The notes beneath the pieces are model-generated. The model did not search any database. It was not told where the DNA came from and saw nothing but the letters and a program-made list of their open reading frames with translations. The translations under genes were made by a program, and so were the position numbers. From a virus, in IMG/VR virus record IMGVR_UViG_3300033232_000045, positions 1 to 64,000 of that record: a stretch of DNA of 64,000 nt; one strand, written 5' to 3'. Positions within the stretch are counted from its first letter, which is position 1. Every line of letters starts with the position of its first letter. Shown in pieces: positions 2,603-59,402 of the stretch.

Positions 2603-2700
2603 GAATGACTCCGATATGTAAGTAGTGACTTTACTATACCCGACTTGGATCAGCGCTCATATAAGAGAGGACCGGTCGGATAGGGGTCGCCCATCCGCGC

Positions 2701-4356
2701 TCATGCCGCGCCCCTCAGCAGCCCGAGGCCCGCGAAGTCGAAGTCTCTGCCGGCAGGCAGGATGTTCTCCCCGAAACCCTCGGTATTTTTAACGATGTTG
2801 AAACGGGCGACGGCGTGGTTCTTCGTGTGTTGGTTCCACTCGTCGTGGAAATCGACCACCAGGCAGACATTCGGGCCACCCTTCTTTGCCCGTAGTCCGC
2901 GACCGATGCGCTGCCGCATGGCGACCTCCGCCTTGCCGCCGCCCGCCAGGATCACCATGCCCACCGCCGGCACGTCGACGCCCACGTCGAGAATGGTTGA
3001 GCCGATCAGCGTGTCGATCTTGCCGTCCTTCAGCCACCCGAGATAGCGACGGCGCTCCTCCTGCGAGTGCTCGCCAAAGATGAACGCCGCCCTGACGCCG
3101 CGCTCCTTCAGCATCGTCTCAAGCAGCTTGCCGTGCGCCTTGTGCTGAACCAGTACCATAACGGGCATGCCCAGCTTGGCTGCGCGCTCCGCCTCGTACA
3201 CGACCGCACGGTTACGCCGCTCGTTCTCGCTGACGCCCGCCTTGTAGGCGACCTTCCAGGCGCTCGTACGGTACAGTTTGGCGGGACGGTCAAATTGCGT
3301 AACGAACTTGAAGTAGGGTTTTGCCAGGATGCCCCGGTCGATCAGCAGTTTCTCGCTGACTTTGATTGCGATCGGGCCAGAGCACGCCATCAAACGCATG
3401 TTCGACTCTTCGCTGTCCTTCATGAAGGGCGTGGCGGTGAGCGCGAGACGGTAGTAGGCGTTCCTGCAGTTGCGCATAATCTCGAAGTAGGAGTTGCCGG
3501 ACGCCTCATGCGCCTCTTCGAGGATGACGAGCTCGAACATTTCGAGCACCTTGATGGTCTCCTCGCGTCGGCGCTGCTGCGTCTCGACCCTAGGCTTCAC
3601 AAGTTCGACGATTTCCCTATTGGTCTTGCGCTTGAACGCAGGCAGCTTGCCTGTGCCGCCCATCTTGCGGGCGAGCGTTAGCGCCTTGTTGAATTTCGCC
3701 TCTTCCTCGCGCTCCTTAACCAGGAATGCCTCGACCTCGCTCTCGATCGTGGCCTCACGCAGGCGGGCGACCAAAGTCTGCACCATGCCGACATTGATGC
3801 CTCTGCGCGGGCTCCATTCTGAGTCACCCAGTACACCGACCGCCTTACCCAGGCCCTCGAAGCTGTCCTTCATCTGGTACATCAGGATGCCGCGCGTGGT
3901 CAGGAAGAGAGTGGGGCGACCGATGCGCACGGCGCACATTTTGGCGATGCGGGATTTGCCGCCACCGGTGGCGACCTGAGCGATGATCTGACCATATCTG
4001 ACCAGACGCCGCATGACTTCAGGCTGATAGTCGTAGCGCGGATCATCGCCGAACTCGTCGACGACCGGATTCTCGGGGCCGAGCGGGGCCGGCAGCGGCT
4101 TCCTGGCGCGCAGAACCTTGTAGCCCTTCTTAACCAAGTGCGCATGCACACGATCGGCGAAGCCTGCGGGGAAGGTGCCCCTGTTGAAGTCCAAAAATGA
4201 ACTGCGCCCGTCCCAGCGTCCACTTTGAAACGTGCTGGTGTGCTCCGCGCCGTCGACCTGATAGGAGAGGAGTGCCGAGACGAGGAGCTTCACCTCGCGG
4301 TCTGCATCGACCAGCTTGGCGATAACGGCATTGTTGGCGATCGTAACTGTGCTCAT
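2701..4356 (-). CDS. superfamily-2 DEAD/DEAH-box DNA/RNA helicase
   Basis: Walker A ATGGGKS, DEAH-like LEEAHE, motif VI QRIGRGLR. Confidence 0.85.
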   Translation of the reverse strand: MSTVTIANNAVIAKLVDADREVKLLVSALLSYQVDGAEHTSTFQSGRWDGRSSFLDFNRGTFPAGFADRVHAHLVKKGYKVLRARKPLPAPLGPENPVVDEFGDDPRYDYQPEVMRRLVRYGQIIAQVATGGGKSRIAKMCAVRIGRPTLFLTTRGILMYQMKDSFEGLGKAVGVLGDSEWSPRRGINVGMVQTLVARLREATIESEVEAFLVKEREEEAKFNKALTLARKMGGTGKLPAFKRKTNREIVELVKPRVETQQRRREETIKVLEMFELVILEEAHEASGNSYFEIMRNCRNAYYRLALTATPFMKDSEESNMRLMACSGPIAIKVSEKLLIDRGILAKPYFKFVTQFDRPAKLYRTSAWKVAYKAGVSENERRNRAVVYEAERAAKLGMPVMVLVQHKAHGKLLETMLKERGVRAAFIFGEHSQEERRRYLGWLKDGKIDTLIGSTILDVGVDVPAVGMVILAGGGKAEVAMRQRIGRGLRAKKGGPNVCLVVDFHDEWNQHTKNHAVARFNIVKNTEGFGENILPAGRDFDFAGLGLLRGAA

Positions 4357-5114
4357 GCGCTTGCCTCTCCTGCGAAATGCCTCCTTAGCCTCTTCCTGAG
4401 CGTGTCTGAGCTGACGCCATATTCGGCCGCAACACGAGTAAGCCCAGTCAGCCTGTTTGGGTTTGCAAAGTTTTTTGCCGCCCTCTCAACGTCTTCCACC
4501 GAGAGGGCATCACCATGCTTTTTTGTCGTCAGAATATTTTCTGACGACATTCCTAGCGCAATTCGCGTTCTGATCGTACCCGCTGGGACCCCAAGCCTTC
4601 TTGACCACTGAGCCACAGTCATTCTCTCGCCATCAAATTCGATGAAAACGCTATTCCTCTTATTGTTTTGCTGCGTCACCGCATCTGCCCACCTGCAATT
4701 TTCGGGAGAGTAGTCGCCGTCAACGTCAATACGGTCGAGACTTTTGCCGTCCTGCGCTTCACCCATGTCGCTCAGGAACGCCTCAAAGGAGCTAGCCCAC
4801 CTGTCGCATACCTTGATGCCACGCCCTCCATAGTTTCTGTAACTGGACAAACTTTCGTTTTTGCATCGCGCCCGCATAGACAGCCAGACCGCATAGGTCA
4901 GCGTCTGACTCATGCCGTGGGTTCTGTGCGTGTCTCCATTCCGCTCCCGGTGCAGGCACCCGCAAGACCGGGTATTTCCACTTTTAATGTTCCTAGTGGT
5001 TGCGCGAATCTCTTGTCCGCAATCGCACCTGCACAACCACAAACTTTTGCCAAGATACTCGACCGCAACAAGACGGCCGAATCGCTCGTTCGATAATTTT
5101 GACCTTGGGCTCAT
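4353..5114 (-). CDS. homing-endonuclease-like protein (Zn-ribbon, degenerate HNH-like motif, C-terminal HTHs); paralog of 60752-61345
   Basis: FGRL..C.CDCG..SCGC; YGGRGIKVCDRW; DRIDVDGDYSPENCRWA..Q.N; start moved to ATG 5114 (MSPRSKL); ATGA overlap with helicase start. Confidence 0.55.
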   Translation of the reverse strand: MSPRSKLSNERFGRLVAVEYLGKSLWLCRCDCGQEIRATTRNIKSGNTRSCGCLHRERNGDTHRTHGMSQTLTYAVWLSMRARCKNESLSSYRNYGGRGIKVCDRWASSFEAFLSDMGEAQDGKSLDRIDVDGDYSPENCRWADAVTQQNNKRNSVFIEFDGERMTVAQWSRRLGVPAGTIRTRIALGMSSENILTTKKHGDALSVEDVERAAKNFANPNRLTGLTRVAAEYGVSSDTLRKRLRRHFAGEASA

Positions 5115-5142
5115 TGACGTTTGCCTTATAGCAGGATAAAGT
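5114..5142 (+). promoter_or_regulatory. sigma70-like promoter TTGACG-N17-TAAAGT for the ParB/ABC/GNAT operon
   Basis: Hexamers at 5114-5119 and 5137-5142; same -10 and downstream context as the late promoter at 10056. Confidence 0.5.
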
Positions 5143-5155
5143 AAGCTGTGACTTA
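5138..5155 (+). promoter_or_regulatory. TAAGTCA-N4-TGAYTTA motif copy (degenerate left half)
   Basis: AAAGTAAGCTGTGACTTA, 25 nt upstream of gene 5180. Confidence 0.45.
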
Positions 5156-5179
5156 TATTATAGTAGATTAAACCAAACA

Positions 5180-5842
5180 ATGAAGAAGTTTGAAACAATT
5201 TATTTAAGCCCGCTCGCGCTAAGTGCGAACAAGTTCAATCCGAACGTGATGTCCGCAGAGAATGAGAACCGTCTGCGCGAGAGCATTCGCCGAAATGGAT
5301 TTTTCAAGCCCGCGCTTGTGCGGGAGCTGCCCAATGGAACGCTCGAAATCATAGGTGGAGAGCATAGGGTATCTGCAGCCATTGACCTTGGAATCACGGA
5401 GGTTCCGGTTGTCAATCTTGGCAGCATTAGCGACGAAAAGGCAAAAGAGCTTTGCGTCCTAGACAACGGTCGGTACGGTGACGACGATGCCCTGCGACTC
5501 GCGGAACTGCTGAGCGAGATGGGCTCCGTCGATGAAATTGCCTCCTTCATGCCTTACTCCGATGCTGATTTCGCTGCGATCTTCGCTTCGACCAGTATAG
5601 AGCTCGACAACCTCGACATCCCCGATAACGAGGAACTGCCTCCCATGCTGCCGACCGAGAAGCCGATCCAGACCCATCAGGTCATGCGCTTTAAAGTCCC
5701 GGTCGGCGATGTCGAGCACATCACCAGCGTCATCGAGCGCGTGATGCGGACACAAAAGTTCACCGATGAAGATTCCCTCTCCAACGCAGGCAATGCGCTG
5801 GTCCACGTATTCAAAAAAGGAGCAACCGAAGATGGCGTATAA
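5180..5842 (+). CDS. ParB/Srx N-terminal-domain (ParB-like nuclease domain) protein
   Basis: NPN..., EIIGGEHRVSAAIDLG, VLDNGRY motifs typical of the ParB N-terminal domain. Confidence 0.75.
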   Translation: MKKFETIYLSPLALSANKFNPNVMSAENENRLRESIRRNGFFKPALVRELPNGTLEIIGGEHRVSAAIDLGITEVPVVNLGSISDEKAKELCVLDNGRYGDDDALRLAELLSEMGSVDEIASFMPYSDADFAAIFASTSIELDNLDIPDNEELPPMLPTEKPIQTHQVMRFKVPVGDVEHITSVIERVMRTQKFTDEDSLSNAGNALVHVFKKGATEDGV

Positions 5843-5966: not shown

Positions 5967-6169
5967 GCAGCTTCATCGTCGCAGCACGCCACAAGGACGG
6001 CACCAAAAACCTCTATCAGGTGTCCGAAGCTGAGAACCACACCGAGGCATACGAACACGTTCGCGCATCCACAAGGGCGCGCGCAGTCCTCGTCTGCATC
6101 GAGGGCGGCAAGCCCCTCAAGGAAGCCCCCATCCCCGAAGATCAAGATAAGCAGGAGCAAACCGCGTGA
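5963..6169 (+). CDS. hypothetical protein, 68 aa
   Basis: Track ORF; ATGA-type overlap with both neighbours. Confidence 0.5.
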   Translation: MSSFIVAARHKDGTKNLYQVSEAENHTEAYEHVRASTRARAVLVCIEGGKPLKEAPIPEDQDKQEQTA

Positions 6170-6819
6170 GCGCCATGAACATTAAAATCTGGAACATCGA
6201 TGAGCTGATTCCGTACGAGCTCAACGCCAAGATTCACACCCCCGAGCAGGTCGCCCGTATCGCCAAGTCCATCAATGATTTCGGCTGGAACCAGCCGATC
6301 GTGGTGGATAAGTCAGGGGTGATTATCGCCGGTCACGGTCGGCGTCTCGCCGCAATCAAGTTGGGTATGGCAAAGGTGCCGGTCTGGGTGCGCGATGACC
6401 TCGACGATGATCAGGCGCGGGCGCTGCGCCTTGCTGACAACCGCGTTGCCGAGGGCGATATCGACACTGAAATATTTCGTCGCGAGCTGGAGACGCTGGA
6501 ATACGACCTGTCGGGAATCTTCGACGAGAAGGAGCTGGACTTTGGCACCCTCGACCTGGGCGAAATGGACACGGGCTCATTCATTGAGGATGTGGACGAG
6601 CAGGTCAGGCAGCAAAAGGCGGCAACCGAATCCCATATCCAGGAGACAGCGGTGCGCCAGGTTTCGCTGGCAAAAGCGATGGGCTTCAAGTCGATTTCCG
6701 GCGCCGACGAGATTCACGTCGCACAGTTCATGGCGGAAATCATGAACGACTTCGACCCCGACCCTGCGATCGCCTTTGTGAAGTTCGTCCAAGCATATAA
6801 CAATGGAGATGCAAAGTGA
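6166..6819 (+). CDS. ParB/Srx N-terminal-domain protein (second paralog)
   Basis: IIAGHGRRLAAIKLG and LRLADN motifs; no methylase or HTH domain follows. Confidence 0.75.
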   Translation: MSAMNIKIWNIDELIPYELNAKIHTPEQVARIAKSINDFGWNQPIVVDKSGVIIAGHGRRLAAIKLGMAKVPVWVRDDLDDDQARALRLADNRVAEGDIDTEIFRRELETLEYDLSGIFDEKELDFGTLDLGEMDTGSFIEDVDEQVRQQKAATESHIQETAVRQVSLAKAMGFKSISGADEIHVAQFMAEIMNDFDPDPAIAFVKFVQAYNNGDAK

Positions 6820-7902: not shown

Positions 7903-7904
7903 CC

Positions 7905-8819
7905 ATGAGCGAAATCATTCTGCTGGACAACCCTGACGCCCTTGTGAAGCGTCTGAAGCACGATAAGCCGCGACTCTCGCTGCTCGATCGCATCTACGTC
8001 GAAAAAGGCACACTCGATGACTGGAAAAAGCTGCATGAGCTTCACTACAAGGCTGAGAACCTGGGCATTGGCCCTCGCTATTGGCGCTGCGTACTCGATG
8101 GGGAAACTATTGGCGTTCTGGTCTTTACCGTGCCCAAGCCACTCGACTCGGGTCGTAACAAGGTGTTCCCGCGACTGAAGCCCAATCAGGGCGGGCGCGA
8201 CAATCGCCTGGTCAACCGCGCTCGCATGAACTGGCTCAACGCGAACATGATCCTATGCAGCCGCAACGTGCTCGACACCATGTACCGGGGCGCGGGCATC
8301 GCCTATCGCTTCCGAAACCTGACGTTCCGCATGTGCGGGCTGCGCTACATCGAGGCGCGCTCGTCCATGAGCCGGTTCAACCCGTTCTACCAGAAGGCCG
8401 GCATGAAGTTGATCGCCCCCAAGCCGTCGAACTGCCACCTGCAAGGGCTGGAGTTCTTTGGCCGTCACTTCCGCTCGCTACCCTCCGACAGCGTGGCAGT
8501 GATGAACGAACTGCAGGGAATGCCCGAGGCAATCCGCGAGAACGTAATTCGCGAAATGCGGGGCTTCTACTACCGCCACAGCTCGATGGAGAAGTCAGGT
8601 GACAAGCGCTTACTTGGCACGTCCAGAGTCGATTCTCTGCCCGTTACGACCCTATTACGTCAGGTATTGCAGCTCGTCTTCGGATCGACCATCTACGGAA
8701 TCTACGAAAACCCCGATCACGGGCGCCAGCTTCCGAGCCGACTGCCCCTTACCGCGTTCGACTGGCAGGCCACCAACGAGCCGCTGCGTCTTGACCTATT
8801 GCCAAAGGAGTACCAGTGA
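7905..8819 (+). CDS. GNAT-like acyltransferase-fold protein (putative)
   Basis: Acetyl-CoA-loop-like motif VLDTMYRGAGIAYRF followed by NPFYQKAGM; N-terminal LHELHY...GETIGVLVFTVP; a GTG at 7896 is an alternative start. Confidence 0.5.
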   Translation: MSEIILLDNPDALVKRLKHDKPRLSLLDRIYVEKGTLDDWKKLHELHYKAENLGIGPRYWRCVLDGETIGVLVFTVPKPLDSGRNKVFPRLKPNQGGRDNRLVNRARMNWLNANMILCSRNVLDTMYRGAGIAYRFRNLTFRMCGLRYIEARSSMSRFNPFYQKAGMKLIAPKPSNCHLQGLEFFGRHFRSLPSDSVAVMNELQGMPEAIRENVIREMRGFYYRHSSMEKSGDKRLLGTSRVDSLPVTTLLRQVLQLVFGSTIYGIYENPDHGRQLPSRLPLTAFDWQATNEPLRLDLLPKEYQ

Positions 8820-9139
8820 ATCTAACTGTGAAGCAAATTTCCATTCTGCGGGCGGTCGTCAACCGCAACGACGACGGGTCCCTTGTGGACCTGGATCAGC
8901 TCCTCGACCGCATCGACTATGAGACGACCAAGGCCAGCATCCAGTTTTCGATCCGCAGCATGGTGAAGGCGGGCGTGATCATGAAGGTCGCGGAGAGACG
9001 GCGGGGTCGGCAGCATGTCTGCTACGAACCAACCGGCCTCGGCGCCCGCATCCTGGGTCGAGACAAGCCCATGCAGGGAGTGGTTGAGGATGAGGGCTGG
9101 AACGAAATCCTCTCCGCAACGGGACACCTCGCCCTATAA
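8816..9139 (+). CDS. winged-helix (MarR-like) DNA-binding protein, 107 aa
   Basis: ISILRAV...SIQFSIRSMVKAGVIMKV...Y.PT helix-turn-helix plus wing pattern; last gene of the operon. Confidence 0.5.
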   Translation: MNLTVKQISILRAVVNRNDDGSLVDLDQLLDRIDYETTKASIQFSIRSMVKAGVIMKVAERRRGRQHVCYEPTGLGARILGRDKPMQGVVEDEGWNEILSATGHLAL

Positions 9140-9643
9140 GGCAGAAAAGAATTCGCTGTCTATACCGTGATGCTCAATATGCGCAGCCTTGAATGCATCG
9201 AATGCCTCTTCCGCGTCGTCGTAGAGCCCGATGAAGTGGCGCCTGCCCCTCACGTTGATGGTGGCGCAGTAGCGGTCGCCTCGCGGGTAGACGCCCCTGA
9301 AGCCGGTCTTGCTCGTCGTGCCGCGATTGTTGATGTTCGCAACACAGGGAACATCGCGAAGGTTCTCGATTCGGTTGTTGGTCTTGTTCCGGTCGATATG
9401 GTCGATCTGTCGCTTCGGCAATTCACCATCGTTGTGCAACGCCCACACAATGCGGTGGCAGCGATATTGCGTCCCATCGATGCCGACCATGAGATAGCCC
9501 TTCGGGTTTGTCGACCCCGCGATGCCTCCAGCTTTGACGTTGCCGCGATTGATTCGCCAGATCAGGTTCCCCGTCTTGGGGTCGTAGTCGAGCAGTTCGC
9601 GAATGCGCTCCAGGGTTGGATGCGTCTTGTATTGGGCGTGCAT
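9134..9643 (-). CDS. HNH endonuclease with AP2-type DNA-binding domain (free-standing homing endonuclease)
   Basis: CHRIVWALH...IDHIDRNKTNNRIENLR HNH motif; GFRGVYPRGDRYCATINVRGRRHFIGLYDDAEEA AP2-like domain. Confidence 0.8.
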   Translation of the reverse strand: MHAQYKTHPTLERIRELLDYDPKTGNLIWRINRGNVKAGGIAGSTNPKGYLMVGIDGTQYRCHRIVWALHNDGELPKRQIDHIDRNKTNNRIENLRDVPCVANINNRGTTSKTGFRGVYPRGDRYCATINVRGRRHFIGLYDDAEEAFDAFKAAHIEHHGIDSEFFSAL

Positions 9644-9692
9644 GATAAGTCCTTGCTGAGTAACATTGGTCTCATTATAGCGTCCCGCGCTG

Positions 9693-9741
9693 TAGGGTTT
9701 ACTGGCGATAGAGCTAGGGGATTTCTGGACGTTCTTATAAG
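9693..9741 (+). repeat. 49-bp direct repeat copy 1 (core GGTTTACTGGYGATAGAGCTAGGG)
   Basis: TAGGGTTTACTGGCGATAGAGCTAGGGGATTTCTGGACGTTCTTATAAG. Confidence 0.85.
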
Positions 9742-9749
9742 CGCCCCTA

Positions 9750-9798
9750 TAAGGTTTACTGGTGATAGAGCTAGGGGATTTTCGGGCATTCTTGTAAG
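9750..9798 (+). repeat. 49-bp direct repeat copy 2
   Basis: TAAGGTTTACTGGTGATAGAGCTAGGGGATTTTCGGGCATTCTTGTAAG; about 42/49 identical to copy 1. Confidence 0.85.
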
Positions 9799-9860
9799 AT
9801 AGAAGTATAAGTAAGTAGTTAATTAAAGAGTCTATATATATATGAGAAGCACCAAAAATA

Positions 9861-9884
9861 CCCTAGTTCTATCACTAGTAAAAC
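9861..9884 (-). repeat. inverted copy of the 24-bp repeat core
   Basis: Reverse complement GTTTTACTAGTGATAGAACTAGGG matches the core at 21/24; separated from the direct copies by an AT-rich tract (tatatatatatg). Confidence 0.75.
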
Positions 9885-10011
9885 ACCATTGATTTTATTG
9901 AATAATTTTACGAAACAGGATCGCGGAATGAAGATAGAGGCTGCGGAGAGCAACATCCACACCCCAGAGGCGGAGCGGAAGGGTGCGCCCTCGGTCGCCT
10001 CCGGCTCCCGT

Positions 10012-10030
10012 CACGGGAAAATTTCCCGTG
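10012..10030. promoter_or_regulatory. perfect 9+1+9 palindrome CACGGGAAA-A-TTTCCCGTG
   Basis: Read directly; lies 26 nt upstream of the late promoter -35. Confidence 0.5.
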
Positions 10031-10040
10031 CCCCGAAATA

Positions 10041-10058
10041 TAAGTAAGCGGTGACTTG
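10041..10058 (+). promoter_or_regulatory. TAAGTCA-N4-TGAYTTA motif copy overlapping the late promoter -35
   Basis: TAAGTAAGCGGTGACTTG. Confidence 0.5.
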
Positions 10059-10084
10059 ACAATGGAATTCGATATGGCTAAAGT
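10056..10084 (+). promoter_or_regulatory. sigma70-like late promoter TTGACA-N17-TAAAGT
   Basis: Consensus -35, 17-nt spacer, 4/6 -10; about 78 nt upstream of terS. Confidence 0.6.
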
Positions 10085-10119
10085 AGTGACTGTTGTTGCA
10101 AGACAATCTCCTCCCCAAA

Positions 10120-10149
10120 GGGCGCCACTCTCTCGCGCCCCTTTTTTTT
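10120..10149 (+). terminator. intrinsic terminator between the late promoter and terS
   Basis: GGGCGC-cactctctc-GCGCCC followed by C and T8; ends 12 nt before the terS ATG. Confidence 0.75.
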
Positions 10150-10161
10150 GGTCGCTGAATC

Positions 10162-12110: not shown

Positions 12111-12121
12111 GGCTTGACGAA

Positions 12122-12139
12122 TAAGTCAGTCCTGAGTTA
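12122..12139 (+). promoter_or_regulatory. TAAGTCA-N4-TGAYTTA motif copy
   Basis: TAAGTCAGTCCTGAGTTA between terL and portal; TTGACG lies just upstream (12114). Confidence 0.6.
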
Positions 12140-12167
12140 ATCTCTGGCGATTCTTACAGGAAGCTGC

Positions 12168-14682: not shown

Positions 14683-14714
14683 GCTAAGATAACTCAGTAG
14701 TGATTTATCTTAGC
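14683..14714. promoter_or_regulatory. 32-bp near-perfect palindrome (13/14-bp arms, 4-nt spacer) enclosing a motif copy, upstream of the capsid gene
   Basis: GCTAAGATAACTCA-GTAG-TGATTTATCTTAGC; the motif copy TAACTCAGTAGTGATTTA is at 14690-14707. Confidence 0.7.
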
Positions 14715-15642: not shown

Positions 15643-15671
15643 TTGATGATAAGTCACGGGTGACGTACAAT
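15643..15671 (+). promoter_or_regulatory. sigma70-like hexamers TTGATG-N17-TACAAT with a motif copy filling the spacer
   Basis: Motif TAAGTCACGGGTGACGTA at 15650-15667. Confidence 0.45.
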
Positions 15672-18008: not shown

Positions 18009-18454
18009 AAATCTCCTTCGACGCCAGGGCAATCGTAGCCAAGCTGACGCAGATCGGTGAGCACGCCGAAAAGAGAGGGGCGGAAGCCCTGCGCAAGGGC
18101 GCGCACGAGATTCGGAACCGCGCACGCGCCTACGCCCCGCTGGAGCATGGCGGTCTTGAGCATGCGATTCAGGTGTATTCGGATCGCAGCGGCATCAACC
18201 GCCGGCGGGTCTACTACGTCTACATTGATCCTGACATGCCCGAGCTCGACGCTGGTGGAAAACCTACGAGTCGCAAGGTGGGCCGCTACATGATGATGAT
18301 GCACGAGGGCAGCTACAACCTCGGCAAGCGCTCGCTTGCGAAGGAGGCTTCGAGCGGAGTTTCCGTTGGGCCGAAATTCCTTGAGCGTGCTGCGGATGAG
18401 GTGATCGATAAGCTCAACCAGGCGGTCGCACAACATATAAGGGGTATTTTCTGA
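17999..18454 (+). CDS. HK97 gp10-like head-tail connector protein (putative)
   Basis: 151 aa; the N-terminal pattern ...AEALRKGAHEIRNRARAYAP...GGLE.AI resembles the gp10 family; synteny. Confidence 0.5.
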   Translation: MGMKISFDARAIVAKLTQIGEHAEKRGAEALRKGAHEIRNRARAYAPLEHGGLEHAIQVYSDRSGINRRRVYYVYIDPDMPELDAGGKPTSRKVGRYMMMMHEGSYNLGKRSLAKEASSGVSVGPKFLERAADEVIDKLNQAVAQHIRGIF

Positions 18455-18843: not shown

Positions 18844-18858
18844 GTCACCCGTGACTTA
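18841..18858 (+). promoter_or_regulatory. TAAGTCA-N4-TGACTTA motif copy (perfect palindrome)
   Basis: TAAGTCACCCGTGACTTA; its TAA is the stop codon of gene 18454-18843. Confidence 0.7.
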
Positions 18859-19406: not shown

Positions 19407-19429
19407 TTGAATAGCTCACCTTTTACTTA

Positions 19430-39782: not shown

Positions 39783-39796
39783 TCACGGGTGATTTA
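39779..39796 (+). promoter_or_regulatory. motif copy (TAGTCA variant) spanning the endolysin stop and the holin start
   Basis: GTAGTCACGGGTGATTTA; its TAG is the stop codon (39780-39782) and the holin ATG starts at 39796. Confidence 0.55.
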
Positions 39797-42006: not shown

Positions 42007-42035
42007 TTGATAGTAAGTCATAACTGACTTAGACT
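42007..42035 (+). promoter_or_regulatory. sigma70-like hexamers TTGATA-N17-TAGACT with a perfect motif copy in the spacer
   Basis: Motif TAAGTCATAACTGACTTA at 42014-42031; upstream of phoH. Confidence 0.5.
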
Positions 42036-43978: not shown

Positions 43979-43997
43979 ATTCGCGGTGACTGATTGT

Positions 43998-44015
43998 TAA
44001 GTCATTGCTGACTAT
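43998..44015 (+). promoter_or_regulatory. TAAGTCA-N4-TGAYTTA motif copy overlapping a perfect -10 TATAAT
   Basis: TAAGTCATTGCTGACTAT; TATAAT at 44013-44018. Confidence 0.6.
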
Positions 44016-47061: not shown

Positions 47062-47551
47062 GGGTGAGCGCTACAGTGTCGCTATCAGTGGTAGACAAGC
47101 AGGGAAAACACACATTATGACGTACGGACTTGAATACATCGAGCTACGGGTCACAACAGACGGACGCAACGCCTTTTACAAGATGGCGCTGGTCACGAAG
47201 CCGTCCGGCCTGACTGTGCTCATCAAGCAGTGGGGAAAGGTCGGCGCGAAGGGCCAGGTCAAGGTCGAGAACGGCAGCTCCGCGCTGTCGCGCAATGAGC
47301 TCCGCGACATGGCCGAATCCAAGCGAAAGAGAGGCTATCACCGCGTCGATGCCAACGAAATGTTTGAAGTGGGAGATGCCAACCAAATCCACGATAAGCT
47401 GCTTACGTACGGGTTCAGCGCAAGCCCGTTCACAGCAAGCGAACGGGCTGACGCCTCGCCAATGGAAGAGCTGGACCACGATGCTCTTGCTGAATTTATG
47501 GACGGGCCAAGTGCAGAGCTCAAACGTCCTTCAGGCTGGGGCGACTGGTAA
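47048..47551 (+). CDS. WGR-domain protein
   Basis: YIELRV...NAFYKMALV...WGKVGAKGQ...KRKRGY WGR pattern; start uncertain (alternative ATG at 47117). Confidence 0.6.
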   Translation: MSVPKGERYSVAISGRQAGKTHIMTYGLEYIELRVTTDGRNAFYKMALVTKPSGLTVLIKQWGKVGAKGQVKVENGSSALSRNELRDMAESKRKRGYHRVDANEMFEVGDANQIHDKLLTYGFSASPFTASERADASPMEELDHDALAEFMDGPSAELKRPSGWGDW

Positions 47552-47566
47552 GTCATTCGTGAGTTG
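47549..47566 (+). promoter_or_regulatory. TAAGTCA-N4-TGAYTTA motif copy
   Basis: TAAGTCATTCGTGAGTTG; its TAA is the stop of the WGR gene. Confidence 0.6.
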
Positions 47567-48233: not shown

Positions 48234-49625
48234 ATGAATTCTGACCAAATTTTTGACCTGATCGAGCAAATCGCGGCGACTCCCAGTAAGAACGAGAAGA
48301 TCGTCATGCTTAAGGAAGGCTGTAAGTCCGACCACTTCAAGATGGTTCTCGCTGCGACCTATAATCCACTCGTGACTTACGGCATGGATAAAATGCCCGA
48401 GCGCCGCGATGACTTTGCCGGCGTCAAGCTGTTCGACGAGGATACCTACATCATCATCGACCATCTGGCGACCCGAGTGCTGACGGGTAACGGCGCCCGC
48501 GACACCGTCGCCGCCGAGCTCGGGATGCTGACCGAAAAGTCTGCCGAGCTGCTGAAGCGCATCCTGCGTAAAGACCTGCGCGCCGGCTTCTCCGAGTCGT
48601 CCTGCAACAAGGCGTACAAGGGGCTGGTTCCCGAATTCCCGTACATGCGCTGCAGCCTGCCAAAGGATGCAAAGCTGAAAGACTGGCCGTGGGAAACTGA
48701 TGGCGCCCTGTCGCAAGAGAAAGCTGACGGCATGTTTGCTAACCTCGATGTCGAGTCGACCGGCATCGTGCGCATCACCAGCCGTCAGGGCTCCGAATTC
48801 CCGCTGGGTCAGTTTGCCGATCTAGTGCAGGAGGCAAAGACCCGCCTGGTGCCCGACACGCAGACTCATGGTGAGTTGCTGGTGATGAAAGATGGCGAGA
48901 TTCTGCCCCGCGAAATCGGCAACGGCATTCTCAACAGTGTGCTCAGCGGCGGCGAATTCGGCCCTGGCGAAACCCCAATCTACAAGGTATGGGATTCGAT
49001 TCCGCTGTCTGCGGTGCAGCCGAAGGGGCGCTTCGAGACTCCGTACCGCACCCGACTGCGCGGCATGATCGTGGTGCTGCGTGATAACCCCGGTACGCTG
49101 ATCCAGATGATCGAAACCAAGCTGGTGAGGTCGCTTGCTGAAGCCTACCAGCATGCCGGCGAACTGATGAAGAAAGGCAAGGAGGGCACCATCGTTAAGC
49201 ACCCGCATGCCCACTGGCGCGATGGCACCAGTAAAGAGCAGGTCAAGCTCAAGCTGGAGTTCGAAGTGGACCTGCGCGTGGTCGCTATCGCTCCCGGCAA
49301 GGAGGGCACGAAGAATGAGGGCCGCGCCGGCGCCCTGACCTGCGAAACCGACTGCGGAAAGCTGCGGGTCGACGTGACGGTCAAGAACGAGGCGATGCGC
49401 GACCTTGTTGACGCGGACCCCGAAGACTGGATCGACCGCATCATCCCGGTCGTCGCCAACGAAATCATGACGCCGGGTGAGTCGAACGATCTGCACTCGC
49501 TGTTTCTGCCCCGCATGGCAGAGGCGAAGTACCGCCTCGACAAGGCCGACGCGGACACGCTCGACAAGGTGTTCGCAACGAAAGAGGCCGCGATTCTCGG
49601 TGCGGCCCTCAAAGCTGCAGCATAA
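48234..49625 (+). CDS. ATP-dependent DNA ligase
   Basis: Adenylation motif I EKADGM (KxDG), motif III HGELLV, motif IV EGTIVK, motif V VKLKLE. Confidence 0.85.
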   Translation: MNSDQIFDLIEQIAATPSKNEKIVMLKEGCKSDHFKMVLAATYNPLVTYGMDKMPERRDDFAGVKLFDEDTYIIIDHLATRVLTGNGARDTVAAELGMLTEKSAELLKRILRKDLRAGFSESSCNKAYKGLVPEFPYMRCSLPKDAKLKDWPWETDGALSQEKADGMFANLDVESTGIVRITSRQGSEFPLGQFADLVQEAKTRLVPDTQTHGELLVMKDGEILPREIGNGILNSVLSGGEFGPGETPIYKVWDSIPLSAVQPKGRFETPYRTRLRGMIVVLRDNPGTLIQMIETKLVRSLAEAYQHAGELMKKGKEGTIVKHPHAHWRDGTSKEQVKLKLEFEVDLRVVAIAPGKEGTKNEGRAGALTCETDCGKLRVDVTVKNEAMRDLVDADPEDWIDRIIPVVANEIMTPGESNDLHSLFLPRMAEAKYRLDKADADTLDKVFATKEAAILGAALKAAA

Positions 49626-54491: not shown

Positions 54492-54636
54492 TTCATTTCC
54501 CCATATTGAATTGAATGGCATTGCACCACTCGATTTGATTCTATTCCATGTCGAGTCGAATTGCATCACTCAATTCAATTTGATGCCATTCGGTCCAATT
54601 CGACCCTACCCAATGCGATCCGATGTTGAATGACAC

Positions 54637-54717
54637 GGAATTGGGTGGGGTTGAATCGCACCATAGCATATCGAGTTGCATGATTCAAAGCCATGCAATT
54701 CAACCCCACCCAATTCC
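54637..54717. repeat. perfect 20-bp inverted repeat separated by 41 bp, upstream of parA
   Basis: GGAATTGGGTGGGGTTGAAT (54637-54656) and ATTCAACCCCACCCAATTCC (54698-54717). Confidence 0.85.
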
Positions 54718-54852
54718 ATCTCATCCAACATCGAATTGAGCCGCATGGCATCACATGGAGTTGCATGACATCGCATGAGATAGAGCCGCATGATGTGGCA
54801 TCGCATGATATGGAATGATATCAAGTTAAGTTGTTGTTTTGTAAGGGAGCGG

Positions 54853-54900: not shown

Positions 54901-55425
54901 TCAGGAGTCGAGCTTGCGAACGATCGGCTTTCCATCCTTTTGCTTTTTGCGCATGTCGTCCCGCGCATGTACGAGGGAGTCACGCTCGATTTTCGACACG
55001 TCCGCCGCGATAGTCTTGAGAGCTTGTCGATGCTCGTCGAGCACGATCGTAGGATCGGTTTCGAGAGTCGCCTCGCGCCACAGCTTCAAAAGCTGGCGCT
55101 CATTCTCTGACACTGCTGCGCCCATGACAGACTCAAGTATATCGTGAAGCTCAGGCATGTACTCACTCAGTGCCAGCCTGGTCAGATGCACCGGATCGAC
55201 ATGAATTGCCTTCGCAAGCGCTGGCGCTTTGCCGATGGGGAGTTTTGTACCGCCACGCTTGATCATCACAAGAATGTTCGGTTTCTCGTAGCCTATCGCA
55301 TTGGCAACATCCTTCTGGGTAACGCCAGGCGGAAGATGCGCGAGTTGCGCGCCAATGTAATCAGCAACGGTAGTGACGGACTTGCGGGTTTTCTTTTCTT
55401 TAACGACCTTTGCAGCTTGTTCCAT
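54901..55425 (-). CDS. XRE-family HTH regulator (prophage repressor candidate)
   Basis: ORF trimmed to ATG 55425 with AGGAGG RBS; HTH VTQKDVANAIGYEKPNILVMIKRG. Confidence 0.7.
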   Translation of the reverse strand: MEQAAKVVKEKKTRKSVTTVADYIGAQLAHLPPGVTQKDVANAIGYEKPNILVMIKRGGTKLPIGKAPALAKAIHVDPVHLTRLALSEYMPELHDILESVMGAAVSENERQLLKLWREATLETDPTIVLDEHRQALKTIAADVSKIERDSLVHARDDMRKKQKDGKPIVRKLDS

Positions 55426-55484: not shown

Positions 55485-55502
55485 TAAGTCACGACCACCA
55501 TA
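55485..55502 (+). promoter_or_regulatory. motif half-site copy in the divergent regulatory region
   Basis: TAAGTCACGACCACCATA (left half perfect, right half absent). Confidence 0.4.
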
Positions 55503-55520: not shown

Positions 55521-55538
55521 AAAGTCACTGTTGACTAG
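55521..55538 (+). promoter_or_regulatory. TAAGTCA-N4-TGAYTTA motif copy in the divergent regulatory region
   Basis: AAAGTCACTGTTGACTAG. Confidence 0.55.
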
Positions 55539-55794
55539 CGCATGTTGGAACCTGTGACGAATCCGAAGGAATAGCTGCAGTGTGGAAAATTCGACGAAGG
55601 AGGCGAAAAGTTGAGATGTGGAACTTTCAACAATAGAGTTGAAAAGCGAACGCTAAGTGGCTGTATGCAAAAGAGAATTTATCGCTATAATGACGCACAA
55701 GACGACGCGATTGACCAAATGGGTGCGGAGCAGGCGCCCTGATCAATCGGCTGATTCAGCTTGATTTTAAGTTACGGGCGGAAGCGAGAGCTAA

Positions 55795-55980
55795 ATGATA
55801 AACAGCACCACCAAAGAAGTTGGATTTGAGGAATTTGTGGACATTCTGGCGCAGTCGAAGATAACAAGGTCGAGTGACCTCGGCAGCGCAATCATCCATG
55901 ACGTTGTCCACCCTAGTATGGGCGGATTGACGATGGTCAATACCATTTGTGGACAGTGCGCAATCGTTACGGCGTCATGA
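55795..55980 (+). CDS. hypothetical protein, 61 aa
   Basis: Track ORF followed by a strong terminator; weak RBS. Confidence 0.4.
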   Translation: MINSTTKEVGFEEFVDILAQSKITRSSDLGSAIIHDVVHPSMGGLTMVNTICGQCAIVTAS

Positions 55981-56007
55981 TGTAGTCACGGGGCATAAGC
56001 CACCAAG

Positions 56008-56037
56008 AAGCCCCGCCATTGCGCGGGGCTTTTTTAT
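56008..56037 (+). terminator. intrinsic terminator
   Basis: aagccccgc-cattgc-gcggggctt followed by TTTTTATT. Confidence 0.8.
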
Positions 56038-56152: not shown

Positions 56153-56170
56153 TGAGTCATCGGTAACTTA
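56153..56170 (+). promoter_or_regulatory. motif copy upstream of the CobT-like gene
   Basis: TGAGTCATCGGTAACTTA then TAGGGGAAGTAATG. Confidence 0.5.
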
Positions 56171-56181: not shown

Positions 56182-58119
56182 ATGAACGAACGTGTCTACA
56201 TCCTGCGCGAAGCTGTCACACGCCTGACCAAGCTGCTTGCTGGCAAGAAGGTCGAGGTGACACAGCGTGGCACTCGCGCTTACGTTGAGTACACGCTGGC
56301 GGGCCAGCCCAAGCGCGTGAATTTGCCGTACATCCCCGACAACGCCAGCGAGGATTTGATCAACGCGATTCAGGGCTTTCTTGACCACGAGGTCGGGCAC
56401 ATCCTATTCAGCGACTTTGAGCTGCTGGCGAAGGGCATCGAGGAGGGCGTCGGGAACCTGCACAACGTCCTTGAGGACACGTTTATCGAGCGGCAGATGA
56501 TGAAGAAGTTTCGCGGCTCAGGCATGAACCTGACTTCCACCAGCGGCTTCTACCTGAACCACTTCGCCAAGCCGGAACTTGCGAAGGCGACTGCGGAGGG
56601 CGATGTCAAGAGAATGATCGGCATTCTCATGGTTCCGGCGATCCGCGCATGGTCGGGACAGGAGATTCACGCCGAGTTCATGCGTGACAAGCTGGGGATT
56701 CTGGAGCCGGTAGTCAAGCGTCTCGGATCGCTGATAGGTGACATTGCAAAATGCAACAGCACTGCCGACACCCTTGCGCTGGCGCACAAGATCAACAGGG
56801 CGCTCGAAGAGTCACCTGCCCCCGAATCACCCAGCAAGGAAGGCAAGGAAAAGCCCGAAAAGCCCGAGAAAAAGGATGAGATCGAGGAGCCCGATGAGAA
56901 GCCGGACGACGAGCAGAGCGAAGACAAAGGTGACGGGGAGAGCTCAGACGGCTCCGGCGCAAAAAATGAAGACGAAGACGAAGGTGAAGATAAGGATGAG
57001 GGCGAGGGCGACGAGGGCGACGAGGGCGAAGAGCCGCCTGGCGAGAGAGGGGCGGGCGCCGACGATAGTCCCGAGAACGCCTCCGAAGAGGAATCGGAGG
57101 AGTCCGGCGTCAGCCTGACAGGCATCGAAGGGATGCTCAGTGACGATTTCGACAGTGCTGTGGCGGAAGTCCTGTCTAAAGTTTCGGTGAAGGCAGCGGA
57201 GTCGTCTGACTACCTCGTTTACACGAAGGATTTCGATAAGATCGAGCCGCTGCCGACGAGGGGGTTCTCGGATTTTCTCCTGTCGCGTCTGGAGGACAAG
57301 ACGCTACACATGGCGGGGCCGCTGCAGAAAGACCTTGAGCGTGCCATCGCGGCGCGCTCAATGAAAGTATGGCAGGGTGGGCTGCGCAGGGGCAGAATCA
57401 ACGGGGCTAGCCTTGCCCGTCTTGCGACGGGCGACGATCGTATCTTCAGGCGACGCCAGGAGCACAGGGGCAAGGATGCGGCGGTCGAGCTGGTGGTGGA
57501 TTGCTCGGGCTCAATGGACGGGGTGCCGATCGAGCTTGCGACCCAGGCTGCGTACGCGCTGTCTACCGTGCTGGATCGCATGGGGATCGCCAACGAGGTG
57601 ATCGGGTTCACCACGCTTTCCATCTATGGACGCGGAGCAGCAGGGCCGAGCGACGAAGAGGTGCAGGAAGACCCGCTGAGCGCAACCGGCAAGCAGTATT
57701 CGCGGTTTGAGCCGATCTATATGCCGGTGATTAAGGGCTTCGACGAGCGCATGAATTCCACCGTCAAGCAGCGCTTTGCTGTCCTACCGGCGGCGGGGTG
57801 CTTCCGTAATAACATTGATGGCGAGTCGATTGAAATTGCCGCGATGCGTTTGATGCAGCGCCGAGAGAAGGGCAAGATAATGATCGTGCTGTCTGACGGG
57901 GAACCCGCAGCGTGTGGGGAGTCCGCCGAGCAGTACAGTCACCTCCTGCGAACGACGAAGAAAATCGAGGCAGCAGGCATCAACCTGATCGGGCTTGGCA
58001 TCGACAGCGCGGCGGTCACGCGGTTCTACAGTAAGAGCATCGTGATCCGCAAGATAGAGGAGCTGCCAGGTGAGGTGATGCGCCAGTTGAAAGGCATGCT
58101 GCTGGGCAGTATGCAATAA
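56182..58119 (+). CDS. cobT: CobT-like von Willebrand factor A protein with long acidic tract
   Basis: vWA MIDAS VVDCSGSM; about 100 aa Asp/Glu-rich insert; pairing with the downstream CobS-like AAA+ gene. Confidence 0.8.
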   Translation: MNERVYILREAVTRLTKLLAGKKVEVTQRGTRAYVEYTLAGQPKRVNLPYIPDNASEDLINAIQGFLDHEVGHILFSDFELLAKGIEEGVGNLHNVLEDTFIERQMMKKFRGSGMNLTSTSGFYLNHFAKPELAKATAEGDVKRMIGILMVPAIRAWSGQEIHAEFMRDKLGILEPVVKRLGSLIGDIAKCNSTADTLALAHKINRALEESPAPESPSKEGKEKPEKPEKKDEIEEPDEKPDDEQSEDKGDGESSDGSGAKNEDEDEGEDKDEGEGDEGDEGEEPPGERGAGADDSPENASEEESEESGVSLTGIEGMLSDDFDSAVAEVLSKVSVKAAESSDYLVYTKDFDKIEPLPTRGFSDFLLSRLEDKTLHMAGPLQKDLERAIAARSMKVWQGGLRRGRINGASLARLATGDDRIFRRRQEHRGKDAAVELVVDCSGSMDGVPIELATQAAYALSTVLDRMGIANEVIGFTTLSIYGRGAAGPSDEEVQEDPLSATGKQYSRFEPIYMPVIKGFDERMNSTVKQRFAVLPAAGCFRNNIDGESIEIAAMRLMQRREKGKIMIVLSDGEPAACGESAEQYSHLLRTTKKIEAAGINLIGLGIDSAAVTRFYSKSIVIRKIEELPGEVMRQLKGMLLGSMQ

Positions 58120-58134
58120 GTCAGCGGTGATTGT
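58117..58134 (+). promoter_or_regulatory. TAAGTCA-N4-TGAYTTA motif copy
   Basis: TAAGTCAGCGGTGATTGT; its TAA is the cobT-like stop. Confidence 0.6.
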
Positions 58135-58162
58135 TGCAGTTCCGAGACGCGAACTGTAAGAT
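58134..58162 (+). promoter_or_regulatory. sigma70-like promoter TTGCAG-N17-TAAGAT
   Basis: Abuts the motif copy; 32 nt upstream of the cobS-like ATG. Confidence 0.45.
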
Positions 58163-58193
58163 TACAAATATTGGGAAATCGAGAGGAGAGAAA

Positions 58194-59387
58194 ATGAGTG
58201 AAACGACTGCTGCTGTCGCGTCCAAAACCGAGTCTGATGACAAGATCGCCTGTGAAATTTGCGGAGCTCGGGTGCATAGCATTCAAATTCACCTGCGCGA
58301 TGGCGTACACGGCGAGACTACCATGCAGGACTACACGAACGCTTACCCGGGCGCCCCGGTGATGTCCGACCTGGCAAAGCGCAAGCTGGAGGAGGGGCGC
58401 TCCGCCAGGAGGATCGAGATGGCTACCGCTGCGGTGATTCCGATGCGCAGCACTGACGGCATCGAGAAGGTTGCAATGCACGAGCTGTTCGAGCTCGGCT
58501 CCACCAAGTCCACGCTGTCCGCTTCGGGCAAGCCCATCCCGATCAGCAAGATTCACGGTGGCGACCCCGACTTGGTTCCAGAAATCGACAATGGCTATGT
58601 TTACGACCTTGACTCGCTGAAAAACGTTCTACTCGGGCTGGAAGACAACATTCCGACCTACATTTGGGGCCACATGGGCACGGGCAAGTCCACCCTGGTC
58701 GAGCAGATCGCGGCTCGCACGGGTCGCCCGATGATGCGCATCCAGCACACAATCAACACCGAAGAGAGTCACATCGTCGGCCAGTGGACAGTGAAGGACG
58801 GCCACACGGTCTTCGAGCCAGGTCCGCTGGCGCTGGCGATGCGCAACGGTTGGCTCTACATGGCTGACGAATACGACTTCGCGCTGCCGAACGTCACCTC
58901 GGTCTATCAGGCGGTGCTGGAGGGTAAGTCATTGGTGATTAAGGAGGCAGACGCAGCGAACCGCGTAATTAAGCCTCACCCGCAGTTCCGCTTCGTCGCG
59001 ACGGGTAACACCAACGGCTCCGGTGACGAGACGGGCCTGTATCAGGGCACGAACATTCAGAACGCGGCGAACTATGACCGCTTCGGCGTCGTGATCCAGA
59101 TGACCTACATGCCCAAGCGCCAAGAGATGCAAATTCTGATCAACCAGTCGGGACTAATGAAGGAGGACGCTGAGCGTTTTGTCTCTTTCGCTTCTCTGGT
59201 GCGCGAGGCATTCGACGGGGGCAAGCTGTCCTCGACGATTTCGCCGCGTACCCTGATCACGGCTTCGCGCCTGGGTATCAAGAAGGGGTCGTGGGTGGCC
59301 GGACTGAACCTGTCGTTTGCCAATAAGTTGTCGAAGATCGACCGCGAGGTGGTGGACGGCCTGATGCAACGTGTTTTTGGGGAGTAA
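58194..59387 (+). CDS. cobS: CobS-like AAA+ (MoxR-type) ATPase
   Basis: ORF trimmed to ATG 58194 (GAGAGGAGAG RBS); N-terminal CEICGARVHSIQIHL; Walker A GHMGTGKST; Walker B LYMADEYD. Confidence 0.85.
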   Translation: MSETTAAVASKTESDDKIACEICGARVHSIQIHLRDGVHGETTMQDYTNAYPGAPVMSDLAKRKLEEGRSARRIEMATAAVIPMRSTDGIEKVAMHELFELGSTKSTLSASGKPIPISKIHGGDPDLVPEIDNGYVYDLDSLKNVLLGLEDNIPTYIWGHMGTGKSTLVEQIAARTGRPMMRIQHTINTEESHIVGQWTVKDGHTVFEPGPLALAMRNGWLYMADEYDFALPNVTSVYQAVLEGKSLVIKEADAANRVIKPHPQFRFVATGNTNGSGDETGLYQGTNIQNAANYDRFGVVIQMTYMPKRQEMQILINQSGLMKEDAERFVSFASLVREAFDGGKLSSTISPRTLITASRLGIKKGSWVAGLNLSFANKLSKIDREVVDGLMQRVFGE

Positions 59388-59402
59388 GTCATGGCTGAGT
59401 TC
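59385..59402 (+). promoter_or_regulatory. motif copy spanning the cobS-like stop and the sigma factor start
   Basis: TAAGTCATGGCTGAGTTC; its TAA is the stop codon, and the ATG at 59391 lies inside the motif. Confidence 0.5.

Follow-up and report, generated by a model that had tools for sequence, protein, structure and literature searches.

Temperate phages in which one repressor acts at many operators are a known type of system, and what appears to be such a multi-operator repressor regulon is described here: an 18-bp palindrome, TAAGTCA-N4-TGAYTTA, recurs between the genes of a 64,000-nucleotide stretch of viral DNA (positions 1 to 64,000 of the IMG/VR record IMGVR_UViG_3300033232_000045, hereafter the window), which also encodes an XRE-like helix-turn-helix (HTH) protein. 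The window is part of an RHEph10/SSU5-like phage-plasmid, a group of siphoviruses with genomes of about 105-120 kb, and covers about half of a genome of approximately 115 kb. SSU5-like phage-plasmids are common in Klebsiella, Escherichia, Salmonella, Acinetobacter and many environmental Proteobacteria, and some of them carry resistance or toxin genes. In the literature searched, we found no description of the mechanism by which SSU5-like phage-plasmids are kept silent in the plasmid state, nor of this motif or of the operators of a repressor in RHEph10/SSU5-like elements; a search with the letters of the motif returned only primer-type coincidences.

Phage P1 is a plasmid prophage whose C1 repressor controls many scattered operators at the promoters of lytic operons, in which it resembles the network of the window. 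Its operators are asymmetric 17-mers, C1 is not of the XRE type, and P1 is unrelated to the RHEph10/SSU5-like family. A further resemblance exists to the Streptomyces phage phiC31, whose repressor binds a palindromic repeat of about 17 bp that occurs at many intergenic places of the early region. This phage differs in host phylum, phage family and repressor family, and its repeats accompany phage-specific early promoters instead of overlapping sigma70-type promoters in multiple registers. The operators of P22 share the 7-N4-7 geometry over 18 bp with the window site. The candidate protein of the window is similar to lambdoid CI/Cro and P22 c2 in its predicted XRE/lambda-repressor-like fold (a weak match, 2.6 Å over 63 columns for P22 c2) and in the position of its gene, which is divergent from the early lytic operon. 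In contrast, lambdoid phages employ a handful of operators at two or three promoters together with antitermination, whereas about 30 operators are predicted in the 64 kb of the window, and a scan of family profiles detected no peptidase S24 domain in the XRE-like protein.

The stoperators of mycobacteriophage L5 are bound by a monomer of the repressor. They are asymmetric 13-bp sites in one orientation, which lie mostly off promoters and block elongation (PMC6550527). As in L5 and the Cluster A phages (PMC6550527), the window harbors 20-30 copies of one site in short intergenic gaps of all lytic modules, a subset of the copies is located in promoters, the motif and the presumed repressor co-vary between lineages, and the sites cluster at the repressor locus. 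Unlike the L5 sites, the element described here is a dyad-symmetric palindrome of 18-26 bp with a slight orientation bias, and at least half of its copies overlap promoter-like hexamers of the sigma70 type, so that the term “stoperator-like”, which a preceding sequence-only reading of the window had applied to it, was abandoned.

Here, we propose, with a probability of roughly 0.7, that the palindromes are operators of the XRE-like protein of 174 aa encoded at 54901-55425 on the minus strand, which would mainly repress host-type promoters and thereby act as the prophage repressor.

A symmetric site in the gaps between genes

The repeated 18-bp palindrome is real. All 21 plus-strand copies listed by the sequence-only reading were recovered with correct coordinates and sequences, as was the copy at 2615 in minus orientation. 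Both strands together contain 21 TAAGTCA heptamers, compared to 3.07 expected, and none of 100 shuffled sequences reached this number. With up to three mismatches, the 18-mer gave 61 strand-matches versus 2.86 expected. A position weight matrix (PWM) of 26 nt, which was built from related phages only and left the window out, detected 30 distinct sites at a threshold of at least 10 bits, compared to a mean of 0.5 and a maximum of 2 in shuffled sequences.

When intergenic and coding sequence, both strands and shuffles were compared, the motif was found concentrated in non-coding DNA. Twenty-seven of the 30 PWM sites are non-coding or touch only a stop or start codon, whereas non-coding sequence makes up 8% of the window according to a rough gene map (79 genes, 92% coding); by our own arithmetic this corresponds to a binomial probability of approximately 1e-26. 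The notion of an operator network, with many copies of one predicted protein site in the short gaps of all lytic modules, is supported. The earlier list of copies was incomplete, as about ten had been missed (775, 6309, 9646, 9808, 9879, 19412, 30726, 43976, 48362 and 58925), among them copies inside genes at 6309, 48362 and 58925, which may be either working internal operators or remnants due to chance. The number of perfect TAAGTCA heptamers followed by TGA in plus-strand gaps, given before as at least 14, is 13; two further ones are located in coding sequence, and the one at 55485 has no following TGA. The claimed orientation bias exists and is modest, with 20 of 23 window sites between co-directional genes scoring better in the orientation of the genes (one-sided binomial 2.4e-4; margin 0.4-3.7 bits).

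The anatomy of the site was derived from 170 sites oriented by their flanking genes. The consensus reads (A/G)TAAGTCA-N4-TGACTTA(T/C), with a 7-N4-7 palindrome as its core. Conservation is symmetric to about 26 bp, with A(-3)-W-R-R to the left and Y-N-W-T(22) to the right of the 18-mer, and the 4-bp centre is not conserved. No further conserved position was found within 60 nt on either side, and therefore a partner element at a fixed distance is lacking. The outer end of the right half shows slightly lower conservation than the corresponding positions on the left. From the former description as an imperfect palindrome with polarity, a slight polarity remains, while the site itself is essentially a true palindrome.

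Throughout the family, the sites mostly start 0-20 nt past the upstream stop codon, and in a fair number of cases the TAA of the site is this stop codon. The next start codon follows at widely varying distances of 5 to 120 nt, and a few copies overlap it. The position directly behind stop codons, together with the ability of a perfect copy to fold into a 7-bp stem with a 4-nt loop, would suit an intercistronic RNA hairpin serving as terminator, processing site or 3′ stabiliser. However, 107 of the 145 deviating pair positions carry a single change that breaks the pair, a further 27 leave a wobble, and only 6 show compensating changes on both sides. Unpaired combinations at positions 2 and 17 of the RHEph10 sites, C2+T17 (13 sites) and A2+G17 (8 sites), outnumber the paired ones, and no T run follows the palindrome in the flanks of the window copies or of the 170 oriented sites. 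Since the deviations break the pairing, the element is best regarded as a DNA site for a symmetric protein on double-stranded DNA, and a function as RNA hairpin is extremely improbable.

Nucleotide similarity to sequenced phages is low. When 20 kb of the window were compared with GenBank phages by megablast, a 943-bp match in the TerL gene of Rhizobium phage RHEph10 was the only result, and therefore the placement in the family was derived from protein searches. Window proteins were matched in the same order in SSU5 (29 proteins) and RHEph10 (34 proteins), and the identity of TerL is 61-64%. The shared gene order starts with a helicase gene on the minus strand and continues with genes for a ParB-like protein, methyltransferase, terminase, portal, capsid, tail, DnaB, primase and ligase, followed by a minus-strand plasmid module and by CobT, CobS, sigma factor and DNA polymerase III alpha. 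In the window, the minus-strand block encodes a Rep-like HTH_36/DnaD_N protein, a ParA ATPase and the XRE-like protein. A 113-kb contig of Massilia sp. also belongs to this family of elements.

The motif is conserved across these relatives. Scanning IMG/VR for the exact palindrome (14 specified bases) yielded at least 119 loci; among the matches listed, 85 have genes for homologues of window proteins, and 62 of these loci are strongly related to the window. The relatives have GC contents of 41-68%, and their DNA is only about 65-70% identical to the window. The motif was present in related phage genomes, where it lies at orthologous junctions: the 62 strong loci comprise 201 sites with up to two mismatches, just one of which is located inside a homologous coding alignment. 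Conserved junctions are those between the TerL and portal genes (at least 18 related loci), between scaffold and capsid genes, past the capsid gene, around the major tail gene, past the tape-measure gene and in the divergent helicase/ParB region. The junction before the capsid gene is the commonest one, with 28 sites. RHEph10 carries the variant TCAGTCAATATTGACTGA at about 35 intergenic places, and SSU5 the variant TAAGTAAGTACTTACTTA at about 13 places. SSU5 additionally contains a second, unrelated palindrome, AAACAA-N-TTGTTT, in 13-14 copies compared to approximately 0.08 expected. Known boxes of host factors (CtrA, LexA, IHF, CRP and FNR/FixK) were discarded as an explanation of the motif, as they do not match it in spacing or in the arrangement of half-sites, and as hosts of different classes share the motif.

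Overlap of the sites with predicted promoters

Pairs of sigma70-type hexamers were scored at each register in the 170 oriented sites. The palindrome alone already favors matches at some registers, so the mirrored orientation was used as control. A -10 hexamer formed from the last TA of the site (positions 17-22), with the -35 hexamer at -6 to -1, was counted 37 times versus 15 times in the mirror, and a -10 hexamer ending on the first T of the site 34 times versus 10 times. The right half serves as -35 hexamer in 14 cases (3 in the mirror), and a -35 hexamer starts from position 16 in 17 cases (fewer than 3 in the mirror). In addition, a TTG is located 17 nt upstream of the TAnnnT hexamer at position 17 in 20 sites, compared to one in the mirror. 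The right half as a general -35 element was ruled out, since T is the rarest base at position 11 and TTGAC is therefore avoided.

Of the 15 best promoter matches on the plus strand of the whole window, nine overlap a site, where chance would give 2.3%. Examples with 10 of 12 matching promoter positions are TTGACA-17-TAAAGT (10056-10084), TTGACT-17-GATAAT (30694) and TTGACC-17-TATGAT (36475); others are TTGATG-17-TACAAT (15643) and TTGATA-17-TAGACT (42007). Altogether, about 16 of the 30 window sites overlap a promoter match. The remaining 14 or so have no recognisable promoter and may act as roadblocks or lie on weak promoters.

The register of the site relative to sigma70-like hexamers is variable in the window, as had been noted before, and likewise in the whole family. 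A site located variously over the -35 hexamer, the spacer or the -10/start region is expected for a repressor operator, not for an activator site or a promoter element, and with at least half of the copies placed directly on sigma70-like elements, their placement resembles that of ordinary promoter operators. A double duty is taken to explain the slight polarity of the site: its left TAA is often the upstream stop codon, and its right end is often bent toward a -35 (TTG) or -10 (TAnnnT) hexamer. The analysis also shows that the family drives its late genes from many small predicted host-type promoters and not from one long late operon.

The main alternative considered previously was a promoter element for RNA polymerase carrying the phage sigma factor (59391-60098). 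The window indeed encodes this protein with sigma70 region 2, copies of the motif precede many genes, and the right half resembles the -35 elements of extracytoplasmic function (ECF) sigma factors. Against this, the motif is dyad-symmetric over as much as 26 bp and lacks a partner at a fixed distance, it occurs in at least four registers relative to the sigma70-like hexamers, and the variable distance to the start codon includes at least seven window copies that lie within 11 nt of the next start codon or contain it; the rarity of T at position 11 is likewise unfavorable. Furthermore, tblastn at 1e-5 found no match to the sigma factor in GenBank phages, and its identity to the RHEph10 protein is 23%, yet the motif is conserved. 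SSU5 offers no space for a sigma factor gene at the corresponding position and nonetheless retains the variant palindrome. A protein that diverges so fast is unlikely to be the reader of so conserved a site, and we consider this explanation very improbable.

The XRE-like protein as candidate reader

Candidates for the protein that reads the palindrome are, within the window, the XRE-like protein, the ParB-like protein (5180-5842), the PHROG-900 protein (8816-9139), the sigma factor and the protein encoded after it. While a search for related loci with the single sequence of the XRE-like protein found none, an alignment of six homologues led to 66 IMG/VR loci, nearly all of which carry the palindrome. 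In these loci, sites cluster up to 200 nt and 400-700 nt upstream of the XRE gene as well as just after it.

Where the half-site differs, so do the two residues that precede an invariant Asn at the beginning of the predicted recognition helix. The helix signature K-P-N (xKPN) is accompanied by the half-site T(A/C)AGTCA in 46 loci with 29 distinct HTH sequences. In the RHEph10 clade, Q-S-N (TQSN) is found with TCA(G/A)TCA and an AATATT centre. Three loci with (G/R)-S-N carry TAACTAA or TCACTAA, and S-P-N (KSPN) occurs with TAAGTAA in three loci with two distinct HTH sequences. In the homologue of the E. coli phage Cyrano the residues are N-A-N-N, and a GGTAAG-CA-CTTACC palindrome is located in front of the gene. 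A complete circular plasmid of Methylobacterium oryzae (116.8 kb) shows the same gene order as the window and the K-P-N signature, and contains 7 palindromes in 12.4 kb compared to 0.2 expected.

In about 45 loci and in the window, the XRE gene diverges from the CobT-CobS-sigma-PolIII operon, and in several of them it is followed by ParA/Rep genes. The predicted promoter of the XRE gene, TAGTCA-18-TATACT (minus strand, 55537-55508), takes its -35 hexamer from one half of the site at 55521, and this copy over the gene's own -35 hexamer implies negative autoregulation. Clustering of the sites, co-variation of the helix signature and the promoter overlap at 55521 thus make the XRE-like gene, for which the sequence-only reading had noted two adjacent copies, the best candidate for encoding the binding protein.

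Another reader would be the ParB-like protein, acting in the manner of KorB of RK2, or a regulator encoded outside the 64 kb. RHEph10 and SSU5 share the conserved ParB-like gene with the window, its product has a GxxR motif in the ParB N-terminal domain, and in most relatives the gene adjoins a perfect copy in the divergent helicase/ParB region. SSU5 retains palindromes without a detectable XRE homologue, and the window holds only about half of the genome. On the other hand, no HTH was recognised in the ParB-like protein past residue 118 or so, where the matches to solved ParB/Noc structures end. A variable 4-bp spacer such as the centre of the window site is not known from ParB and KorB sites. 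As the clustering of sites, the promoter overlap and the changes in the helix signature favor the XRE-like protein, a different reader is regarded as quite unlikely.

The assignment of the XRE-like protein to the XRE/lambda-repressor-like fold is made with moderate confidence. A 78%-identical homologue (P0002) carries a precomputed PF01381 annotation, and PHROG 8 (“transcriptional regulator”) matches the protein with 8.9e-6. An AlphaFold2 model places helices at residues 20-29, 37-44, 51-56, 64-73 and 78-89, with a low mean predicted local distance difference test (pLDDT) score of 60.8. The top Foldseek matches of this model are XRE-type repressors (Stl, SinR, P22 c2 and C proteins) with E-values above 0.02. 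As a homologue search returned only six close homologues, the model has a shallow basis and low confidence, and its fold matches are no more than suggestive.

Homologues are found on plasmids in large numbers. In PLSDB, 968 plasmid records encode one, mostly non-mobilizable and of about 105-115 kb. They include 154 Acinetobacter records, with A. baumannii plasmids of 105-114 kb among them, and several hundred further records from Klebsiella, Escherichia, Enterobacter and Yersinia. The Cyrano homologue CYRAN_45 is annotated as “putative repressor”, and the LF82 plasmid prophage is inducible by ciprofloxacin (PMC9928086).

According to the mechanism we propose, a dimer of the XRE-type protein would bind the 18-bp palindrome as its operator. 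The lytic genes would be split into many short transcription units, each with a host sigma70-type promoter whose -35 hexamer, spacer or -10/start region is overlain by an operator copy, and therefore one repressor could occlude RNA polymerase at about thirty places. In this way, genes for packaging, head, tail, lysis and replication would be kept off during plasmid maintenance, while the repressor gene is oriented away from the lytic genes and toward the ParA/Rep plasmid-maintenance genes. Copies without a recognisable promoter may add roadblocks.

Alternatively, the XRE-like protein could be mainly a regulator of the lytic cycle, either a Cro-like shut-off protein or a dual repressor/activator setting the order of early and late expression. 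The conservation of the operator over very divergent relatives and hosts suits a regulator of the core programme better than an immunity determinant, and in the RHEph10 clade and about 20 other loci the XRE gene immediately precedes the CobT operon in the same direction. Two of the four registers place the centre of the site near -36 and -41 from the predicted start, in the range where class II activators bind. However, in most loci and in the window the XRE gene points against the lytic genes and toward ParA/Rep, and the two commonest registers cover the spacer and the -10/start region, positions at which RNA polymerase would be blocked. Moreover, the homologue CYRAN_45 is expressed in the lysogen, being listed as transcribed 10-fold above the local background in the LF82 lysogen (PMC9928086). 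We therefore judge a primarily lytic role to be unlikely, though not negligible.

Several observations weigh against the XRE-like protein as a repressor acting through these operators. Immunity determinants normally diversify, so that conservation as strong as that of the operator would be unusual for one, and in RHEph10-like genomes the XRE gene is co-directional with lytic genes. The palindrome itself contributes matches to promoter hexamers, a bias which the mirrored control lessens without removing it. The Pfam HTH_3 match to the protein (17.1 bits) is below the curated cut-off of 23, and the model of low confidence gave no Foldseek match at an E-value of 0.001. In bacterial assemblies, 8 of 16 XRE homologues have no palindrome within 4 kb; all eight are in unrelated gene contexts, and seven of them carry K-P-N while one (L205) has no clean signature. 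Hence the three residues alone do not define specificity, and these homologues either have other operators or the signature does not set the specificity. Since the groups with variant motifs are clades, the co-variation rests on about four to five independent changes, and common ancestry could yield part of it. Finally, no XRE homologue was found in SSU5 (three queries against the first 100 kb and tblastn of the phage collection), which keeps its roughly 13 variant palindromes.

On a tentative and rather doubtful extension of the repressor-operator proposal, a single pair with 14 nearly frozen operator bases might control essentially every transcription unit across the whole family, in Alpha-, Beta- and Gammaproteobacteria and at GC contents of 41-68%. 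In that case, thirty or more operators per genome would lock the specificity, very distant members of the family would be mutually immune, and the few specificity switches (KPN, QSN, RSN, SPN and NAN with their matching half-sites) would represent a readable recognition code of an XRE subfamily. The analysis supplies a candidate gene for the repressor, an operator model of 26 bp, a map of about thirty predicted promoters and a testable recognition code, with which induction, cross-immunity and engineering of these phage-plasmids would become directly accessible to experiments.

Individual copies and neighbouring elements

In the following, copies are on the plus strand unless stated otherwise, and scores refer to the PWM. 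At the left end of the window, the copy TAATTCACAACTGACTAA (775-792, 18.6 bits, two mismatches) provides with its TAA the stop codon of the open reading frame (ORF) 118-777. The copy AAAGTCACTACTTACATA at 2615-2632 is oriented to the minus strand (15.8 bits reverse, 14.8 bits forward) and lies between the minus-strand gene 2381-2602 and the helicase gene (2701-4356, minus strand). The copy at 5138-5155 (19.9/21.7 bits, no orientation assigned) overlaps the -10 hexamer of TTGACG-17-TAAAGT (5114-5142) in the divergent region between the ParB-like gene on the plus strand and the helicase gene with ORF 4353-5198 on the minus strand; the orthologous site is mostly a perfect palindrome in about 15 related loci. 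In relatives, the helicase start is 35-56 nt away from this divergent palindrome, and the window has an additional 800 bp. The extra ORF 4353-5198, whose start codon is uncertain, shows weak matches to HTH_psq and sigma70 region 4 and may be an inserted DNA-binding gene. A weaker copy at 6309-6326 (13.5 bits) lies with all 18 bases inside the ParB-methyltransferase gene 6166-6819.

The gap 9644-10161 contains four copies. The first (9646-9663, 17.7 bits) is 2 nt past the start of the minus-strand HNH gene 9134-9643, followed by TAAGTAAGTAGTTAATTA (9808-9825, 17.9 bits), a marginal copy at 9879-9896 (10.4 bits) and the copy upstream of the small terminase gene (10041-10058, 25.1 bits), whose last three bases begin the -35 hexamer of the promoter at 10056. 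Between the TerL and portal genes, the copy at 12122-12139 (23.7 bits) is located inside TTGACG-18-TAATCT (12114-12143), where it overlaps the end of the -35 hexamer, occupies the spacer and gives the TA of the -10 hexamer. The copy before the major capsid gene (14690-14707, 27.1 bits) closes with its first T the -10 hexamer of TTGCAA-17-TAAGAT, and the one just past this gene (15650-15667, 28.1 bits) occupies the spacer of the promoter at 15643.

In the tail region, a perfect palindrome without mismatches (18841-18858, 26.2 bits) is located upstream of the major-tail-like gene starting at 18882 and provides the stop codon of gene 18454-18843; a weak copy (19412-19429, 12.2 bits) follows gene 18882-19406. 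One nucleotide past the stop codon of the tape-measure gene lies the copy at 23835-23852 (23.1 bits), without an overlapping promoter match, and the copy at 24194-24211 (24.8 bits) includes the ATG of gene 24204-24896. A second palindrome with no mismatch (30684-30701) contributes the stop codon of gene 26244-30686 and, with its right half, the -35 hexamer of the promoter at 30694; a marginal copy on the minus strand (10.4 bits reverse) is found at 30726-30743.

Further downstream, the copies at 35251-35268 (20.7 bits) and 36503-36520 (23.5 bits) lie at the -10/start region of TTGACC-18-TAAGAT and of the promoter at 36475, respectively. The copy at 38930-38947 (26.2 bits) provides the stop codon of gene 38609-38932, and its end overlaps the -35 hexamer of TTGCAA-17-CATAAT. 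The degenerate copy GTAGTCACGGGTGATTTA (39779-39796) has two mismatches, scores below 10 bits with the family PWM and spans the stop codon of one gene and the start of the next. The top score of the window, 30.0 bits, belongs to the perfect palindrome at 42014-42031 in the spacer of the promoter at 42007. A weak copy at 43976-43993 (11.2/13.0 bits, no orientation assigned) overlaps the stop codon of gene 43235-43978 and is followed by the copy at 43998-44015 (19.9 bits), which overlaps CTGATT-17-TATAAT. The TAA of the copy at 47549-47566 (19.8 bits) is a stop codon, and its end overlaps the -35 hexamer of TTGCTG-17-TATCAT, while a marginal minus-strand copy (48362-48379, 10.7 bits reverse) lies in the coding sequence of gene 48234-49625.

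Around the XRE-like gene, an isolated half-site TAAGTCA (55485-55491) lies in the leader, next to the copy at 55521-55538 (16.0 bits, no orientation assigned). The copy at 56153-56170 (14.4/16.3 bits) is located just past a TATACT -10 hexamer in the predicted start region of the CobT-CobS-sigma-PolIII operon. Within this operon, the copy at 58117-58134 (15.8 bits) provides the CobT stop codon and abuts TTGCAG-17-TAAGAT, the copy at 58925-58942 (18.1 bits) lies in the coding sequence of the CobS-like gene, and that at 59385-59402 (12.7 bits) spans the CobS stop codon and the start codon of the sigma factor gene.

Two further elements were observed at the XRE/CobT locus. The unit 55611-56036 starts with the promoter-like TTGAGA-17-TAGAGT at 55611, comprises the small ORF 55795-55980 (61 aa, without family match) between the repressor gene and the CobT operon, and ends in a GC-rich hairpin with a T run at about 55990-56036, apparently a strong terminator. 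It is the only unit of the locus without an overlapping palindrome, and its ORF could have a Cro- or antirepressor-like function. On the other side, the gap between the XRE and ParA genes (54500-54830) is densely filled with degenerate short repeats (units such as GCATGA, TTGAAT and ATTGCA) and holds no copy of the palindrome. It includes an inverted repeat of 43 nt (54618-54660 and 54694-54736, 88% complementary), and the repeats resemble either an iteron array of the ParA/Rep module or its partition centromere.

Besides the HNH endonuclease gene before the terminase genes, a second one (61010-61345, plus strand) is located directly before the gene for DNA polymerase III alpha. Both gave no tblastn match in RHEph10 and SSU5. 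They may be homing-type insertions.

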